From: Gemmatimonas sp.
GTDB lineage: Bacteria; Gemmatimonadota; Gemmatimonadetes; Gemmatimonadales; Gemmatimonadaceae
Length of the DNA stretch: 64,000 nt
Assembly (NCBI GenBank): GCA_031414535.1
Contig: JANNVQ010000054.1
Location: 32,001 to 96,000 of the forward strand
Reading direction: 5' to 3'
Position 1 is the stretch's first letter, and every line of letters starts with the position of its first letter. A program made the translations under genes and the position numbers. Of the stretch, positions 31,643-37,440 are shown in pieces. The notes beneath the pieces were generated by a model that was given only the letters and a program-made list of their open reading frames with translations, was not told the DNA's origin and ran no database searches.

Positions 31643-32083
31643 ATGAGAATACACTCCGTTGCCCTCTTCGCGCTCCTGCTCGGCGCCGCGGCTTTGGTAT
31701 GGCTCACGCTGGCCCTACGACGCTGGTGGAAGGCCCGCCTTCTACATACGCGCATGGACACCGCCTCCCAGGGCGAAGCGCGCGCTGAGGCTTGGCTGGA
31801 GGCCCAAGGCTACCGCATCCTCGAGCGGCAGGTCAGCCGTCGCTGCCAGATGCACATCAATGGGCGGGTGGCTGAGTTCGACGTGAGGGCCGACCTGCTC
31901 GTGCAGATGGGCCAGGAGAGCGTGGTGGTCGAGGTCAAAACCGGGGAAGCCGCCGACCCCCGCCTGCCTGCCACGAGGCGTCAGCTCCGCGAGTATTGCG
32001 AGGTCTTTGGGGTGGACCAGATCTACCTCTTCGACGCCAACGTCAGCCGCCTCCACAAGGTGGAGTTTTCCGCCACCGAGTAG
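31643..32083 (+). CDS. Membrane-anchored PD-(D/E)XK nuclease-fold protein (YraN-like)
   Basis: N-terminal TM; GEARAEAWLEAQGYRIL; RADLL...VEVKTG. Confidence 0.65.
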   Translation: MRIHSVALFALLLGAAALVWLTLALRRWWKARLLHTRMDTASQGEARAEAWLEAQGYRILERQVSRRCQMHINGRVAEFDVRADLLVQMGQESVVVEVKTGEAADPRLPATRRQLREYCEVFGVDQIYLFDANVSRLHKVEFSATE

Positions 32084-32108
32084 GCTAAAAGCCGATATAT
32101 TTCAGGTC

Positions 32109-33278
32109 GTGCCCCCCAAGTCGCCCATCTACCTCGACCACGCTGCCACCACCCCGGTTCGCCCGGAGGTGATGGAGGCGATGATTCCCTTTTTCGGTCC
32201 GCGGTTCGGGAATCCGTCGTCCACGCATCGTTGGGGTCGTGAAGCGCGCGCCGCGCTGGATGAAGCCCGCGAACGCGTGGCCCGCTGCTTCAACGCGGCG
32301 CCGGACGAGATATGCTTCACTTCCGGTGGCACCGAAGGCGACAACCTCGCCGTGCTCGGCGGCTGGCGCATTCTCAAGGAGCAGGGCAAGAAGGCCGTTG
32401 TCACGAGCCCGATTGAACACAAAGCCGTGTTGCAGGCCGTGCACCAGGCCGCCAAGGAAGGCGCTGAGGAGCGCATGCTCTCCGTCCAGCGCAACGGCAT
32501 GGTGGATATGACCGACGCGCGCTCAAAGATCACGAGCGGCGACACGGCCCTCGTCTCCGTCATGTGGGTCAACAACGAGACGGGCGTCATTCAGCCTATT
32601 GAAGCGCTCGCGGCCTTGACCAAGGCGGCTGGCGCGGTCTTCCACACGGATGCCGTGCAGGCCTTTGGCAAAGTCGAAGTGAACGCCAAGACTGTGCCAT
32701 TTGATTTTGTGGCTCTGAGCGGTCACAAGCTTGGTGCGCCCAAAGGAATCGGCGCATTCTTCATTCGCCGCGGCACGCCGCTGGAGCCGCTGTTCTTTGG
32801 CGGCACGCAGGATCGCGGCCGTCGGCCTGGCACCGAGAACGTCGCAGCAGCTGTTGGGCTCGCCCGAGCGATGGAGCTCGCGCTCGAGGAACGTGAATCG
32901 CACTGGACCATGCTTGCGGCCATGCGGGATCAGCTCGAGGCGCGGCTTCTGGAGCGCATCCCTGACGCGGTGATTCACGGCCGTGACGCGAAGCGTGCGC
33001 CGCACGTGCTGAATATCTCCGTGCCGGGAACGGACTCGGAATCAATGCTCATGGCGCTCGACCTGCAGGGCGTCGCGGCGTCGAGTGGGTCGGCCTGTCA
33101 GAGTGGAAGCGTGGCGCCTTCGCACGTGCTGGCCGCGATGGGCGTGCGCGCGGACATCGCGAATGCCGCGATTCGGATGTCGTTCGGTGCGCTGAGTACG
33201 CCGGACGATGTGGACCGCGTGGCGGAGCTGTTCCCGGCCTTGATTGCCAAGGCGCGCGGGTTGAGCGGGGTCGCGTGA
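32109..33278 (+). CDS. iscS: Cysteine desulfurase (IscS/NifS family)
   Basis: YLDHAATTP, GNPSS, FTSGGTE, HTDAVQ, SGHK, SSGSACQSG. Confidence 0.92.
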   Translation: MPPKSPIYLDHAATTPVRPEVMEAMIPFFGPRFGNPSSTHRWGREARAALDEARERVARCFNAAPDEICFTSGGTEGDNLAVLGGWRILKEQGKKAVVTSPIEHKAVLQAVHQAAKEGAEERMLSVQRNGMVDMTDARSKITSGDTALVSVMWVNNETGVIQPIEALAALTKAAGAVFHTDAVQAFGKVEVNAKTVPFDFVALSGHKLGAPKGIGAFFIRRGTPLEPLFFGGTQDRGRRPGTENVAAAVGLARAMELALEERESHWTMLAAMRDQLEARLLERIPDAVIHGRDAKRAPHVLNISVPGTDSESMLMALDLQGVAASSGSACQSGSVAPSHVLAAMGVRADIANAAIRMSFGALSTPDDVDRVAELFPALIAKARGLSGVA

Positions 33279-33288
33279 CGTCACACTA

Positions 33289-33317
33289 TTGACAACGACG
33301 AAACTGTACCTTAGCCT
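33289..33317 (+). promoter_or_regulatory. Sigma70-type promoter for the rtcB leader
   Basis: TTGACA (33289-94), 17 nt, TAGCCT (33312-17). Confidence 0.75.
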
Positions 33318-33420
33318 TCCCTTCGCTTGGGAGTCGCGTCCCGCACGAACGGTTGTCCCCTGTGGACTTCCTGCCGTCACTGACGCGACTCCTTTTTCTT
33401 TGCCCCTCAGGTATCCGACC

Positions 33421-33570
33421 ATGACTGTCCAACGCCAATTCCGCCGCGCAGCTCTCGCGAGCCCGATGATTGACATCATCGGACGCTTGGACGCGCGCGC
33501 GTTTGCGCCAGTCAATCTCACTCCGAAGACCAACACCGCAGGCGACAGAGGAATCCGCGAGCAGACCTAA
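33421..33570 (+). CDS. Putative leader peptide (49 aa) of an rtcB attenuator
   Basis: MTVQRQFRRAALASPMIDIIGRLDARAFAPVNLTPKTNTAGDRGIREQT*, preceded by caggt; lies between promoter and terminator. Confidence 0.5.
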   Translation: MTVQRQFRRAALASPMIDIIGRLDARAFAPVNLTPKTNTAGDRGIREQT

Positions 33571-33600
33571 TGCTCAAGGCCCTCTTGGGTTAGCACCACC

Positions 33601-33640
33601 ACCCCGCCTGCGCTTCCCGAGCCAGGCGGGGTTTCTGTTT
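33601..33640 (+). terminator. Intrinsic terminator (attenuator) upstream of rtcB
   Basis: ccccgcctg (33602-10) / caggcgggg (33623-31) stem followed by tttctgttt. Confidence 0.75.
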
Positions 33641-33819
33641 CCTGGCAATACAAGACGGCGTTGCGGATCTCCTCGCAGCGAATGAACGGGTGAAAGGCAC
33701 GCGACTCCCAACACTCGGCTCATTCACCACAGCGTCGGCAACTCCCTCGGGGCGCTCGCGGCGCGCTCGGCCTCGCCTCGAGGGAGAGGCATTCACATTT
33801 CTGAAGTGAGCAGTGACCA

Positions 33820-35031
33820 ATGAAAATCTTTGGACAGCACGACGAAAAGACCCTGATCCAGTTCGAATCCGTGCGCGAACGTGCAGTGGACGCCGCCCTC
33901 ATGGCCGACGGTCACGTGGGCTATGTCATGCCGATTGGTGGCGTGGCGGCGTATCGCAACCAGGTATCGGTGGTGGGCGTCGGCTTCGACATCGCCTGCG
34001 GAAACGCCGCGATTCGCACAGACCTCACGCTGCAGTCGCTGGGTGGCACGGCGGAAGCGCAGCACGTGGCCCTGCTTTCGTTCGCCGACGAGATTGCGGA
34101 TGTGGTGAGCTTCGGCGTCGGCCGGAAGAATCGCGCCGACGATGCGCCCGTGGACCATGAGCTCTTTGCTGCGAGCGAGTGGGATGCGGTCCCAGCGTCG
34201 CACCGCGAGGCGCTGCGGAACAAGGCGCGTATCCAGCTCGGCACCGTGGGAAGCGGCAACCACTATGTGGACGTGTTCGAGGACGAAACCGGTCACCTCT
34301 GGGTCGGCGTGCACTTCGGCAGCCGTGGCTTTGGGCACACCGTGGCCTCAGGGTTCCTCGCGCTCAGCCAGGGCGAGGCCTGGGATACCCGCGTGCGGGA
34401 GATCGAAGTGCTTTTGGATCTCGCCGAGCCCACGGGACACGACTACTGGCACCTGATGTCTCTCGCCGGCCGCTACGCTTACGCGGGCCGTGAGTGGGTG
34501 GCTCGGAAAGTGGTCAGCATCATCGGCGGCACGGAACTGGAGCTCGTACATAACCATCACAACTTCGCGTGGAAGGAAGAACACCACGGCGAGGAACTCG
34601 TGGTGATTCGGAAGGGTGCCACGCCGGCCTTTCCGGGGCAGCTGGGCTTCATTGGCGGATCGATGGGCGATGACGCCGTGATTGTGCGCGGTACCGCAAG
34701 CACCGCCTCGCAGGTGCAAGAGACTCAGCGCGACGCGCTCTACTCCACCGTCCATGGTGCGGGCCGTGTAATGTCACGCACGCGGGCTGCCGGTGGCCGC
34801 AAGGGCAAGCAGCGATTTCGGGGCGAGATTTCCGAAGGCATGATGGAGAAGTGGGTGCGGGAGAAGGGCGTGATCCTCCGTGGCGGCGGTGTGGACGAGA
34901 GTCCGCATGTGTACCGCCGGCTCCCGGACGTACTCGCCGCGCAGGGCGAGACGGTAGAAGTCCTGCACACCCTGCGGCCGCTGGTGGTCGTGATGGCGGG
35001 CGCCAACGAGTTTGACCCGTACAAGGACTGA
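33820..35031 (+). CDS. rtcB: RtcB-family RNA ligase
   Basis: ADGHVGYVMPIG, GFDIACG, GSGNHY, HFGSRG, HNHHN, RKGATP, HGAGR, DESPHVYR. Confidence 0.93.
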   Translation: MKIFGQHDEKTLIQFESVRERAVDAALMADGHVGYVMPIGGVAAYRNQVSVVGVGFDIACGNAAIRTDLTLQSLGGTAEAQHVALLSFADEIADVVSFGVGRKNRADDAPVDHELFAASEWDAVPASHREALRNKARIQLGTVGSGNHYVDVFEDETGHLWVGVHFGSRGFGHTVASGFLALSQGEAWDTRVREIEVLLDLAEPTGHDYWHLMSLAGRYAYAGREWVARKVVSIIGGTELELVHNHHNFAWKEEHHGEELVVIRKGATPAFPGQLGFIGGSMGDDAVIVRGTASTASQVQETQRDALYSTVHGAGRVMSRTRAAGGRKGKQRFRGEISEGMMEKWVREKGVILRGGGVDESPHVYRRLPDVLAAQGETVEVLHTLRPLVVVMAGANEFDPYKD

Positions 35032-35052
35032 CTCGCTCGGTATATTCCATCT

Positions 35053-36168
35053 GTGTCCTCACCGGCCAAGAACACCCGCCCCCGAGTCCTCGCCGCCATG
35101 TCTGGCGGCGTGGACTCTTCGGTTGCCGCCGCACTCCTTGTGCGGGAAGGCTACGACGTCGTGGGCGTCACCATGAAGCTGTTCAAGGATGGCGGCGACC
35201 TTCCCGACCGCCCCTGCTGTTCGCTCGATTCCGTGAACGATGCGCGGCGCGTCTGCGAGTCCTTGGGCATTCCGCACTACGTGTTGAATCTCCAGGACGC
35301 GTTCGGTCGCGACGTCGTCAGTGATTTCGTGGCGGAGTATGCGGCAGGTCGCACGCCCATTCCTTGCGTGCGCTGCAACACCTTCACCAAGTTCCGAGAC
35401 CTGCTCGCCAAGGCCGACGCCATTGATGCGCCGTGGATTGCTACAGGCCATTACGCGCGCGTGGCCGACGGCCGTCTGCAGCGCGGCGTGGATGACAACA
35501 AAGACCAGACATACTTCCTCTGGGGCATCGAGCGTGAGGTACTCTCGCGCATGATTCTGCCCGTGGGCGGTCTGACCAAGCCGGAAACACGTGCCGTTGC
35601 TCGCGAACTCGGCCTCCTCACTGCCGAGAAGCCCGAGAGCCACGAGATTTGCTTTGTCCCCGATGGTGATTATGTGAAGGTCCTCGAGCGCGAACTCCCG
35701 CCTGATGCGCCTGCGCTTACGCCTGGACCCATTGTCACGATGGATGGGACAGTGGTCGGCACGCACGAAGGTTTCGCGCGCTTCACCATTGGCCAGCGCC
35801 GTCGGCTGCCCGGTGGCTCGAGCGAGCCAATGTTCGTGGTCGCCTTGCGCCCCGAAGATCGGGCCGTGGTGATTGGGCCGCGGGAGGCCCTGCTCGGACG
35901 CGGCCTCGTCGCCAACGAGGCGAACTGGCTCGTGGACCGCATCCCCGACGAGGGCAGCACGGTGCTGGTCCGCATTCGTCATCGCGCGACACCGGTGGCG
36001 GCCACGCTTCTGCTTGCAACGCCTGAGCGATTCGAAGTCCTGTTGCACGAACCCGCGTACGCGATCGCACCTGGCCAGAGCGTTGTGCTCTATGATGCCG
36101 ATGCGATTGTACTCGGCGGCGGCATCATCAGCGCCAGCCGTCGGGTATTGCCGGTTCGCGCGGCCTGA
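35053..36168 (+). CDS. mnmA: tRNA 2-thiouridylase
   Basis: AMSGGVDSSV, TPIPCVRCN, ATGHYA, KDQTYFL, ESHEICF, FTIGQR, APGQ. Confidence 0.95.
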   Translation: MSSPAKNTRPRVLAAMSGGVDSSVAAALLVREGYDVVGVTMKLFKDGGDLPDRPCCSLDSVNDARRVCESLGIPHYVLNLQDAFGRDVVSDFVAEYAAGRTPIPCVRCNTFTKFRDLLAKADAIDAPWIATGHYARVADGRLQRGVDDNKDQTYFLWGIEREVLSRMILPVGGLTKPETRAVARELGLLTAEKPESHEICFVPDGDYVKVLERELPPDAPALTPGPIVTMDGTVVGTHEGFARFTIGQRRRLPGGSSEPMFVVALRPEDRAVVIGPREALLGRGLVANEANWLVDRIPDEGSTVLVRIRHRATPVAATLLLATPERFEVLLHEPAYAIAPGQSVVLYDADAIVLGGGIISASRRVLPVRAA

Positions 36169-36324
36169 CCGTCTCACCGAGCTGGCCGACGCCGAGCTTG
36201 CCGAAGTACTCAAGCGAATCCGCCCGCCCCGCTAAGCTCTAACCCCACACAGGGGAACGCGATCACACTGGCCGCGATTCTTAGCCAGAGTCTACCTTAA
36301 AAAACATCTCGCTCAGGAGTTCCG

Positions 36325-36747
36325 ATGATCATTCGTAAGTCTTCCGCCAAGTGGGCCGGCGAACTCAAGACCGGCACCGGCCATGTCCGACTCGGCAGCG
36401 GCGCCTTCGAAGGCAAGTATTCGTTTACGACGCGATTTGAGGGCGCGCCAGGCACGAATCCCGAAGAGTTGCTCGCCGCCGCTCACGCCGGCTGCTACTC
36501 AATGGCCTTCAACCTGATGATGTCCATGGCCGGCTTCACCGCCGAGTACGTAGACACCACGGTCGAGGTGCAGATGGATAAGGTGGGCCCGGGCATGGGC
36601 ATCATCGGTGCGAGAATTATCACCGCAGCCAAGGTGCCGGGCATCACAGCGGAGAAGTTCCAAGAGATTGCCGAGAACGCCAAGCAGAACTGCATCATCT
36701 CCAAGGCATTGAATGTGCCGATGACGCTGGACGCGACGCTGGCCTAA
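36325..36747 (+). CDS. osmC: OsmC-family peroxiredoxin
   Basis: GTNPEELLAAAHAGC, AKQNCIISKAL. Confidence 0.92.
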   Translation: MIIRKSSAKWAGELKTGTGHVRLGSGAFEGKYSFTTRFEGAPGTNPEELLAAAHAGCYSMAFNLMMSMAGFTAEYVDTTVEVQMDKVGPGMGIIGARIITAAKVPGITAEKFQEIAENAKQNCIISKALNVPMTLDATLA

Positions 36748-36879
36748 GCGCGGTTCAGGGCGCAGAATAACTCGCAAAGCGACTTACCCTCGCCACGCAT
36801 CGAATTCTGCGCCATACTTTCCCCACCCCTACCTTGGCCCTCCCTCCTCTCCCACCCGGCTCCGCCGATGGAGATCACG

Positions 36880-37440
36880 ATGTCCAACAGCATTCGCACC
36901 GCGCTCGCCGCCGTGGGCTTCGTCCTCGCTGCCGCCGAGCTCCACGCTCAGGCCGCCGCCACAATCCCCGAAGCGGACCGCCCTCGCTACATCCGCGTGT
37001 ACGCAAAGGACTACGCGTTCGACGCCCCCGCGACCTCGTTTGCAGGCGTCGCCACTATTCACCTGATTAATCAGGGCTCGGACCTCCATCACCTGACGGT
37101 TCAGGAACTGCCTGAGGGGCGTACGGTGCGAGAGTACTTGGATGCGGTGCAACGCACGGGGCTTCCGCCGGCGTGGAGCAAGAGCATCGGGCAAACGGCC
37201 ATGATCCCAAACGGAGGCGAGGCCTTCATTGCATTCCGCATGCCTCCTGGTCGCTATGTGCTCTCCTGCGTCATTCCCGCCGCCGACGGCCGTTCGCACG
37301 TGGCCAAAGGGATGTATCAGTTGATCACCGCGACACGAGCGCCCGCGCCGGCAGCAACGCCTCGCACCGCGCCGGCCCCTAACTCGCCCGCCGCGGCCCG
37401 TCCCACAGCCACGCCGCGCCCAGCGACACCGCGGCCCTAG
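36880..37440 (+). CDS. Exported cupredoxin-like protein
   Basis: Signal peptide; H-x motif LHHL; PGRYVLSCVIP...HVAKGM (C/H/M ligand pattern); Pro/Ala tail. Confidence 0.65.
   Translation: MSNSIRTALAAVGFVLAAAELHAQAAATIPEADRPRYIRVYAKDYAFDAPATSFAGVATIHLINQGSDLHHLTVQELPEGRTVREYLDAVQRTGLPPAWSKSIGQTAMIPNGGEAFIAFRMPPGRYVLSCVIPAADGRSHVAKGMYQLITATRAPAPAATPRTAPAPNSPAAARPTATPRPATPRP

Follow-up and report, generated by a model that had tools for sequence, protein, structure and literature searches.

How RNA repair is induced in bacteria that lack the regulator RtcR is a question raised by the rtcB locus of a Gemmatimonas sp. (assembly GCA_031414535.1, contig JANNVQ010000054.1), which we analysed within a 64,000-nucleotide stretch of DNA referred to here as the window. 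Gemmatimonadota are abundant in soil, and little is known of how their genes are regulated. The leader lies between a cysteine desulfurase gene (32007-33278) and rtcB, and mnmA (35053-36168) follows rtcB after a gap of 21 nt and may be co-transcribed with it. The RtcB protein scores below the NCBIfam equivalog cut-offs, has a strong Pfam match (Table 1), and contains the metal-binding and guanylylation motifs DxACG, GNHY, HxGSRG, HNHH, and HGAGR, which are catalytic; rtcB is present in a single copy in this genome. A sequence-only reading of the region had proposed that rtcB is controlled by a ribosome-sensing attenuator, without RtcR or sigma54. The latter part is supported, as the RtcR domain (PF06956) was found neither in this genome (98% complete) nor in the other carrier genomes searched (0/5, own included), and sigma54-like sequences with one mismatch occur three times in 4.2 kb (1.1 expected) and nowhere in the leader. 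With no RtcR found in 5/5 carrier genomes and a sigma70-type promoter, an RtcR/sigma54-controlled rtc operon was rejected. Rfam searches of 32000-37000 and six further loci gave no credible match in the leader, returning sub-threshold chance matches only, and neither a T-box nor any other curated Rfam covariance model was matched; no tRNA or tmRNA was found within the window.

The proposed attenuator was built upon a promoter, a leader ORF (uORF), a terminator (T2), a complementarity between the uORF and T2, and an 8-bp hairpin, all five of which are present (Table 1), and the first four of which are kept in 4/4 same-genus rtcB loci examined. The T2 stem spans 33601-33633 and is followed by a U-rich tail, with its CCCC beginning 31 nt past the uORF stop, and CGCAGGCG at 33537-44 is indeed complementary to 33605-12. 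Both exceed chance, since T2 folds with -25.9 kcal/mol (z -5.3), is called as terminator-like, and is conserved with compensating arms, and the antiterminator fold has a z of -3.9 at this locus. The promoter was not called by a consensus scan because its -10 box matches at 3/6 positions, and its assignment rests on conservation; the transcription start is predicted near 33325. The hairpin CCGATGAT/ATCATCGG at 33463-82 is present but is not conserved in four same-genus relatives. The segment that contains it (33455-33490) resembles a CCGAUG/CAUCGG helix found in the upstream terminator (T1) of most other loci and absent from T1 here, and is possibly a degenerate duplicate or a chance similarity. 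Three conserved elements had been overlooked, A/A' plus a U-tract (33329-33401), a loop hairpin A'' (33680-33725), and hairpin H5 (33742-33786). In a repeat search, the 5' motif GGGAGTCGCGTC is complementary to 33382-33392, which the U-tract follows, and also to 33696-33711. The attenuator interpretation is supported yet incomplete, in that it missed a second tier (T1 upstream and the antisense loop A'' downstream), and the element heads a regulon rather than rtcB alone.

Table 1. Features of the rtcB leader and coding region, numbered by position in the window.
Feature	Position	Strand	Basis
Sigma70-type promoter, TTGACA-17-TAGCCT (TTGACA 33289-94, TAGCCT 33312-17)	33289..33317	+	Sequence
Element A (GGGAGUCGCGUCCC), 5' arm of T1	33329..33342	+	Invariant in 5/5 same-genus loci found via RtcB protein
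A' (3' arm of the terminator-like hairpin T1, 33329-33401) with U-tract	33382..33401	+	Fold, variation pattern
uORF, ATG 33421 to TAA 33570, 49 codons	33421..33570	+	
8-bp hairpin CCGATGAT/ATCATCGG inside uORF, locus-specific	33463..33482	+	Absent from four relatives
Predicted antiterminator, CGCAGGCG paired to T2 5' arm	33537..33612	+	Fold, frame bias, covariation
Intrinsic terminator T2	33601..33640	+	Fold, terminator-like call, compensating arms
A'' hairpin, bulged stalk displaying ACGCGACUCCC (33699-33709), complement of A1-11	33680..33725	+	
Hairpin H5, recurring interior motif GCGGUG...CUC(A/G)CC	33742..33786	+	Kept in 5/5 aligned same-genus loci
rtcB, RNA ligase, 403 aa, frame intact	33820..35031	+	Pfam PF01139, E 8.8e-61

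We examined the conservation of these parts using the RtcB protein as a query against 61 related genomes, which identified four loci in the same genus. Each of them retains the promoter, A, A' with its U-tract, T2, A'', H5, and a uORF that is open but encodes another peptide. None of these leader elements is present at five remoter RtcB loci (65-71% identity). Records titled Gemmatimonadota or Gemmatimonadaceae bear the same leader. A TTGAC-N18/19-TANNNT promoter sits 5-13 nt 5' of element A in 67/301 genomes of the family, with no matches to a reversed-pattern control, and the same combination matched at least 120 metagenome stretches; the loci are related, and these and the following counts overstate independence. 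With two mismatches the pattern is found in 30/251 genomes of the phylum, some of them by chance. It matched 0/101 genomes of another phylum (that of G682), no viral contig matched the A..A' pattern, and the leader was found in 0/5 single genomes reached through a contig scan with a bare 16-mer, whose matches are mostly chance. Most genomes carry one A site only. In two same-genus relatives a different gene lies 5' of the leader and most of the genus is without this rtcB, so the leader and rtcB may together form a mobile cassette. A loose pattern for H5 matched 21 loci, of which roughly 14 were judged on inspection to be genuine look-alikes, and H5 with the GCGGUG...CUC(A/G)CC interior recurs 3' of A'' or between tRNAs (L002, L003, L004, L005, L163, L168, L175, L183, L197, L214, L305, L306, and L375).

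The comparison across relatives bears directly on the ribosome-sensing tier. In 126/137 loci an ATG ORF at least 25 codons long terminates 20-45 nt ahead of T2 (shuffled sequences: mean 12.2, maximum 25), and the distance from stop to T2 is 9-43 nt in 62 loci, mostly 27-43 nt. The uORF peptide is not conserved and has no Pfam or NCBIfam match; the open frame and its end point are conserved. At the home locus CGCAGGCG is in frame, 10 codons 5' of the uORF stop, and among 61 loci with an anchored T2 (L210 was left out as mis-parsed) GCAGG occupies frames 0, 1, and 2 in 35, 1, and 9 loci respectively, mostly exactly ten codons before the stop, figures which relatedness inflates. The antiterminator covaries with the T2 arm, with 8/11 columns reached by 0-33 of 2000 shuffles and with changes that include GC/AU and AU/GC, although one of the eight columns is mostly unpaired and relatedness again inflates the result. 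Cognate duplexes of antiterminator and arm are better than non-cognate ones in 48/62 loci, and better than those with a 5' control window in 58/62. The T2 arm pairs with the end of the uORF in the minimum free energy structure of 102/131 loci (39.6 when shuffled), and an inner helix spanning the uORF stop is predicted in 126/131 (73.7 when shuffled). At the home locus the antiterminator folds as a long hairpin with such an inner helix, and the uORF stop codon lies in its apex loop.

Folding with a 30-nt ribosome footprint placed at sampled codons predicts that a ribosome at codons 37-43 abolishes the antiterminator and one at codon 46 halves it, whereas a ribosome at earlier codons or at the stop codon itself leaves the 8-bp antiterminator helix intact. 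In equilibrium folding the complete T2 always beats the antiterminator. Because T2 wins at equilibrium and a stop-codon ribosome spares the helix, the switch at this tier must be kinetic, and the case for it is a kinetic and steric one. The uORF stop is TAG in 85/131 loci and the final residue is proline in 44/131; termination at a proline followed by a stop is slow, and could park the ribosome on the antiterminator apex. A motif resembling R-V-S-E-M-R is common to 12/131 uORFs, a leader subtype that heads genes for an unnamed cargo protein (about 150-200 aa) and DksA/TraR zinc fingers (L318, L327, L312, L087, L371, and L372), and is a possible arrest peptide.

The uORF and T2 also occur without A or A''. 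This combination precedes MATE efflux pump genes in six genomes (L515, L524, L525, L526, L527, and L538, the last with a called uORF of only 12 codons). In G175 it lies before rtcB and in G072 before an unnamed gene that is itself upstream of rtcB, and it appears to be a portable module. Taken together, the conserved open frame with its non-conserved peptide, the fixed distance from stop to terminator, the in-frame antiterminator that covaries with the terminator arm, and the reuse of the module before MATE pumps argue for the ribosome-sensing attenuator upstream of rtcB, and it is very probable that this tier is a sensor of the whiB7 type in which the uORF controls T2. Other rtcB genes of the family (L473, L484, L497, L487, and L491) have unrelated terminator leaders with apparent short ORFs, as judged by eye, which suggests that attenuation before rtcB was invented repeatedly.

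It is not likely that the uORF merely reflects GC-rich DNA, with T2 a plain terminator and no ribosome sensing. The lack of peptide conservation and the richness of GC-rich DNA in open frames would fit such an account, but neither the excess of suitably placed ORFs (126/137 as compared with 12 when shuffled) nor the mostly 27-43 nt spacing nor a frame-locked, covarying antiterminator is expected from it, and we give it very little credence.

Upstream of the uORF, T1 (33329-33401) folds with -33.8 kcal/mol (z -4.8), and its tail contains 4-11 U in 14 nt across loci, U content having entered the site score. Among 120 loci A' deviates from perfect complementarity to A at 157 positions, and as 147 of these are sense-strand G-U changes, the A/A' pairing is one of RNA, on the strand of the leader. 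Element A itself scarcely varies: positions A13-14, which were free in the metagenome pattern (A1-12 being fixed by it), are invariant in 124/124, and a family search allowing one mismatch found A varied at 7/80 sites. The spacer from A to A' has a median of 94 nt, and before A' is synthesised A is predicted to form a GGGA/UCCC hairpin with an exposed GUCGCG hexaloop (averaged over 128 loci, P is 0.83 for the hairpin and 0.88 for an unpaired loop); once T1 RNA is complete, the stem encloses A. A is also partly complementary to tRNA T-arms (8 Watson-Crick pairs of 11 in one locus). A role for A or A'' as a mimic or target of 23S rRNA was rejected, as neither matches within one mismatch at three rRNA loci (23S plus 1.5 kb flanks each). 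T1 RNA was considered and rejected as a Y RNA (YrlA/YrlB), as by inspection A does not contain the GNCGAAN0-1G motif given in an excerpt of PMC4201824, and no TROVE domain is found in this genome.

The A'' hairpin is tied to T1 by several observations. An exact copy of A'', the complement of A1-11, is located downstream of A in 60/67 genomes, and the second copy is inverted in 39/62 loci with enough sequence, direct in 0/62, and upstream in 0/58. It lies on the same transcript as A at a distance of 130-786 nt, with no helical phasing (R 0.05). The apical 7 nt of A'', which include the complement of the A hexaloop, are predicted to be unpaired (P 0.81-0.96, 108 loci). Since RNAalifold gave no consensus structure for the A'' stalk from a 50-sequence, sequence-only MAFFT alignment, an alignment-free flank-swap test was used, in which stalks with their own flanks fold at -37.1 kcal/mol as compared with -26.5 kcal/mol with swapped flanks, and the own flanks are better in 112/123; at the home locus the z of the hairpin is only -1.5. 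All eight T2 leaders without A also lack A'' (8/8). In the 7/67 genomes, from four genera, that keep A and T1 without A'', the T1 stem has a mismatch in 7/8 as compared with 7/112 in A''-bearing loci. The existence of these genomes, which include G388 (T1 only, 99% complete) and G132 (98%), itself counts against an action of A'' on T1. Likewise, no A'' was called within reach at about 20 loci with T1 and T2, at least one of which is a mis-parse.

Support of another kind would come from compensatory change between A and A''. None was found, both being near-invariant, and in G383 and G529 the change in A has no counterpart in A''; the flanking pair A(-1)/A''(+11) is Watson-Crick in 40/108, a level that 14 of 2000 shuffles attain and, the sequences being related, a weak signal. 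Nor did the upstream regions of other rtcB genes, 52 in all and up to 4 kb long with some short, contain a variant A/A'' pair. We thus infer the pairing of A with A'' from complementarity, exposure, and co-occurrence, and not from covariation. T1-only leaders precede Hen1 in four genomes (G180, G307, G285, and G255), each with a separate A''-bearing locus, and metagenome contigs show more T1-only leaders ahead of genes for Hen1, rtcB, or RelA-like proteins. Against this, a T1 leader is missing from four stand-alone Hen1 genes whose genomes bear A''. Because most genomes have a single A site, control of other operons in trans is a minority case.

The sequences, their conservation and covariation patterns, the co-occurrence of the elements, and the cargo genes are directly established, and the following model is placed upon them. 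The nascent 5' end would form a small hairpin displaying GUCGCG, and where this is unbound it would be displaced by A' some 30-130 nt later, such that T1 terminates most transcripts and holds basal transcription low. Transcripts that pass T1 would stop at T2 while the uORF is well translated, as a ribosome on the last 15 or so uORF codons would cover the antiterminator and melt the stop-codon helix, allowing T2 to form. With a slow, stalled, or absent ribosome, the antiterminator would capture the T2 5' arm and the polymerase would proceed into A'' and rtcB. The ACGCGAC loop of the read-through RNA would then make a kissing contact with nascent A in trans, zip up along it, and block T1, both at its own operon and at T1-only operons (Hen1-Pnkp), to give an amplified and extended response. 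The net effect would be an RNA-only positive feedback with A'' in the role of the mycobacterial WhiB7 protein. The trans step at the upstream tier, in which A'' binds nascent A and opens T1, is put forward tentatively, with the chances slightly against it, and the same holds for the two-tier leader as a whole, ribosome sensing by uORF and T2 combined with opening of T1 by A'' in trans, for which we see somewhat under an even chance. That A'' antiterminates T1 at its own and at unlinked operons, and that a Gemmatimonadota regulon of RNA repair and translation rescue is thereby run by a positive-feedback switch made of RNA with no protein regulator, is a marginally more doubtful proposition.

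The principal alternative accepts the ribosome-sensing tier as proposed and has A'' pair with A only in cis after read-through, to close a long loop for processing, stabilisation, or shut-off, with T1 as a leaky terminator or pause. A'' invariably shares its transcript with A, from which it is 130-786 nt downstream, and the A:A'' duplex (-27.2 kcal/mol) is as stable as A:A' (-26.1 kcal/mol), similarly so in duplex and whole-leader folds, such that pairing in cis would compete; the weak covariation at the flanking pair is at the level of the locus, and most genomes have one A site. Pairing confined to cis should, however, allow compensatory changes, none of which are seen, and it leaves unaccounted for that A is kept, exactly or almost so, in T1-only Hen1 leaders with a diverged inner sequence, and why T1 is weaker where A'' is missing. 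We regard this account as unlikely, though well short of negligible. A protein antiterminator acting in the manner of ANTAR or BglG proteins could instead bind the invariant A hairpin and open T1, with A'' masking the site as an antagonist. The 4-bp stem and hexaloop of A overlap a terminator arm, and A is near-invariant even in genomes without A'', and a protein would explain G388 and G132; against this, A is changed in 2/7 of the A''-less genomes, no protein gene was found that is common to all leaders, and ANTAR (PF03861) is absent from this genome and from 2/4 other carriers (present in 2/5 overall). An ANTAR-responsive leader was rejected on account of the missing PF03861, and a protein antiterminator of some kind appears decidedly unlikely. 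No regulator protein common to the leaders emerged: among 121 downstream ORFs Pfam gave no match to WhiB, and profiles of three recurring unnamed cargo proteins showed two to be absent from this genome and the third to have four uncharacterised matches outside the rtcB operon.

The direction or the sign of the interaction could also be the opposite, with a short T1 RNA acting on the read-through mRNA at A'' (as for IsrK) or A'' promoting termination (as for phage P4 CI), to give negative feedback. Both precedents are of one transcript acting on itself in trans (as described in an excerpt of PMC4825925), and tRNAs immediately 3' of A'' could free it through RNase P cleavage, comparable to CI RNA processing. 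But A is buried in the stem of finished T1 RNA, and binding of A'' to A removes the sole terminator stem of T1-only leaders and so predicts read-through and not termination; we consider such schemes very unlikely. The least credible proposal for this tier makes A an operator in DNA, bound at the start site by a TrcR-like repressor, with A'' an auxiliary operator for DNA looping. The location of A just 3' of the -10 box and its palindromic ends would suit an operator, and cyanobacterial TrcR controls a similar set (rtcB, an HNH nuclease, and a tRNA operon; excerpt of PMC10272220), but the strand-specific G-U variation, the strict orientation (39 against 0), the lack of 10.5-bp phasing, and the display of A'' in a covarying RNA stalk all speak against it. 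DNA looping was rejected in view of the sense-strand G-U changes, the inverted-only copies, and the absence of helical phasing, and we hold the operator proposal to be highly improbable.

Genes downstream of the leader encode RtcB, Ro60/TROVE, Hen1-Pnkp, HNH nucleases, EF-Ts, a RelA/SpoT domain, a DEAD helicase, a baeRF10 release-factor domain, and DksA/TraR zinc fingers, together with tRNA arrays, and some leader-headed genes are unrelated or unnamed. Hen1 is present in 18/301 genomes, of which 14/18 carry A (the Hen1 and RtcB tallies include G354, flagged as unpublished). EF-Ts-family genes are located 3' of A'' in several loci (L366, L196, L199, L201, L216, L363, and L365). Arrays of tRNAs (up to nine Rfam tRNA matches, L207) and tRNA-like RNAs of 122-126 nt are found under the leader before Ro60 (L177, L207, L156, L164, L305, and L005), and the latter are probably YrlA-type Y RNAs; Ro60/TROVE was not found in the Gemmatimonas genome studied here. 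An unnamed protein of about 105 aa is often encoded directly 5' of rtcB (L373:1011-1325 and 34 further loci); it has no Pfam or NCBIfam family, its Atlas neighbours are Gemmatimonadota hypotheticals, it is not present in the home genome, and it is a candidate RtcB partner.

The leader, as read from its sequence, is real, conserved, and more elaborate than first described, and its two tiers relate differently to known systems. The ribosome-sensor tier is a known type of mechanism newly applied to RNA repair, and the T1/A'' tier matches nothing in Rfam or in the literature searched. That literature yielded no paper on this leader, nor on any natural RNA acting in trans to relieve an intrinsic terminator within a positive-feedback loop; an entry in a motif catalogue may exist. 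If the T1/A'' tier operates as proposed, it would provide a natural counterpart of engineered small transcription-activating RNAs (STARs) that has its own amplifier, and over 100 natural variants from which to derive design rules. Should it not, the three-part RNA motif, hitherto unlisted, still marks a regulon of translation stress and flags unnamed cargo proteins as candidate repair factors.

The closest parallel is whiB7/wblC of mycobacteria, where a long uORF is combined with a Rho-independent terminator that forms under efficient translation and an antiterminator that forms under translation stress, with ensuing positive feedback (as presented in an excerpt of 10.1101/2023.06.02.543512). 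The two share a uORF just before an intrinsic terminator and an antiterminator inside the uORF that is exclusive with the terminator. According to the same excerpt, the WhiB7 protein acts at promoters, whereas no regulator gene follows here, and the present leader differs also in having a second terminator 5' of the uORF, a complementary RNA loop 3' of T2, and RNA-repair cargo. The whiB7 regulon proper is not matched, as the first genes encode RtcB, Ro60, EF-Ts, Hen1, DksA-like or unnamed proteins, and no WhiB. The bmrCD and mef/msr attenuators are, to our knowledge, single-tiered, with no 5' terminator with an antisense loop. They are alike in placing a leader ORF and a terminator before a drug-related gene (excerpts of PMC4191407 and PMC4335068), as the T2 module is here before MATE pumps.

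For the upstream tier the comparison is with STARs, in which transcription continues because an RNA supplied in trans has paired with the terminator's 5' arm, within an estimated window of about 1 s and at estimated micromolar trigger levels (excerpt of PMC9071393). A'' similarly offers a single-stranded segment complementary to a terminator 5' arm (60/67 genomes, apical loop unpaired), and the median 94-nt A-A' spacer and loop-loop geometry would ease these demands. Unlike the STARs of that excerpt, which are synthetic and separately expressed, the candidate activator A'' is natural, located within the regulated transcript, displayed in a loop, and would be made only after T2 read-through. 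Phage P4 CI RNA and Gifsy-1 IsrK are alike in that a leader RNA uses short complementary sites to act in trans on transcripts from its own locus, but as outlined in the excerpt of PMC4825925 they act by termination and by translation activation respectively, whereas antitermination is predicted here, coupled to a ribosome sensor and in chromosomal stress operons.

In cargo, the nearest relatives are the RtcR/sigma54 operon of E. coli and Salmonella and the TrcR regulon of Anabaena, which combine RtcB, Ro60 with tRNA-like RNAs, tRNA arrays, an HNH nuclease, and induction by translation damage (as far as excerpts of PMC7790460 and PMC10272220 describe them). Those systems rely on protein regulators acting on DNA, unlike the leader described here, where RtcR was not found in 5/5 carriers and the promoter is of the sigma70 type. 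TrcR in Anabaena is one answer to how RNA repair is induced in bacteria without RtcR, and the rtcB leader would be a third, with the ribosome itself as the sensor.
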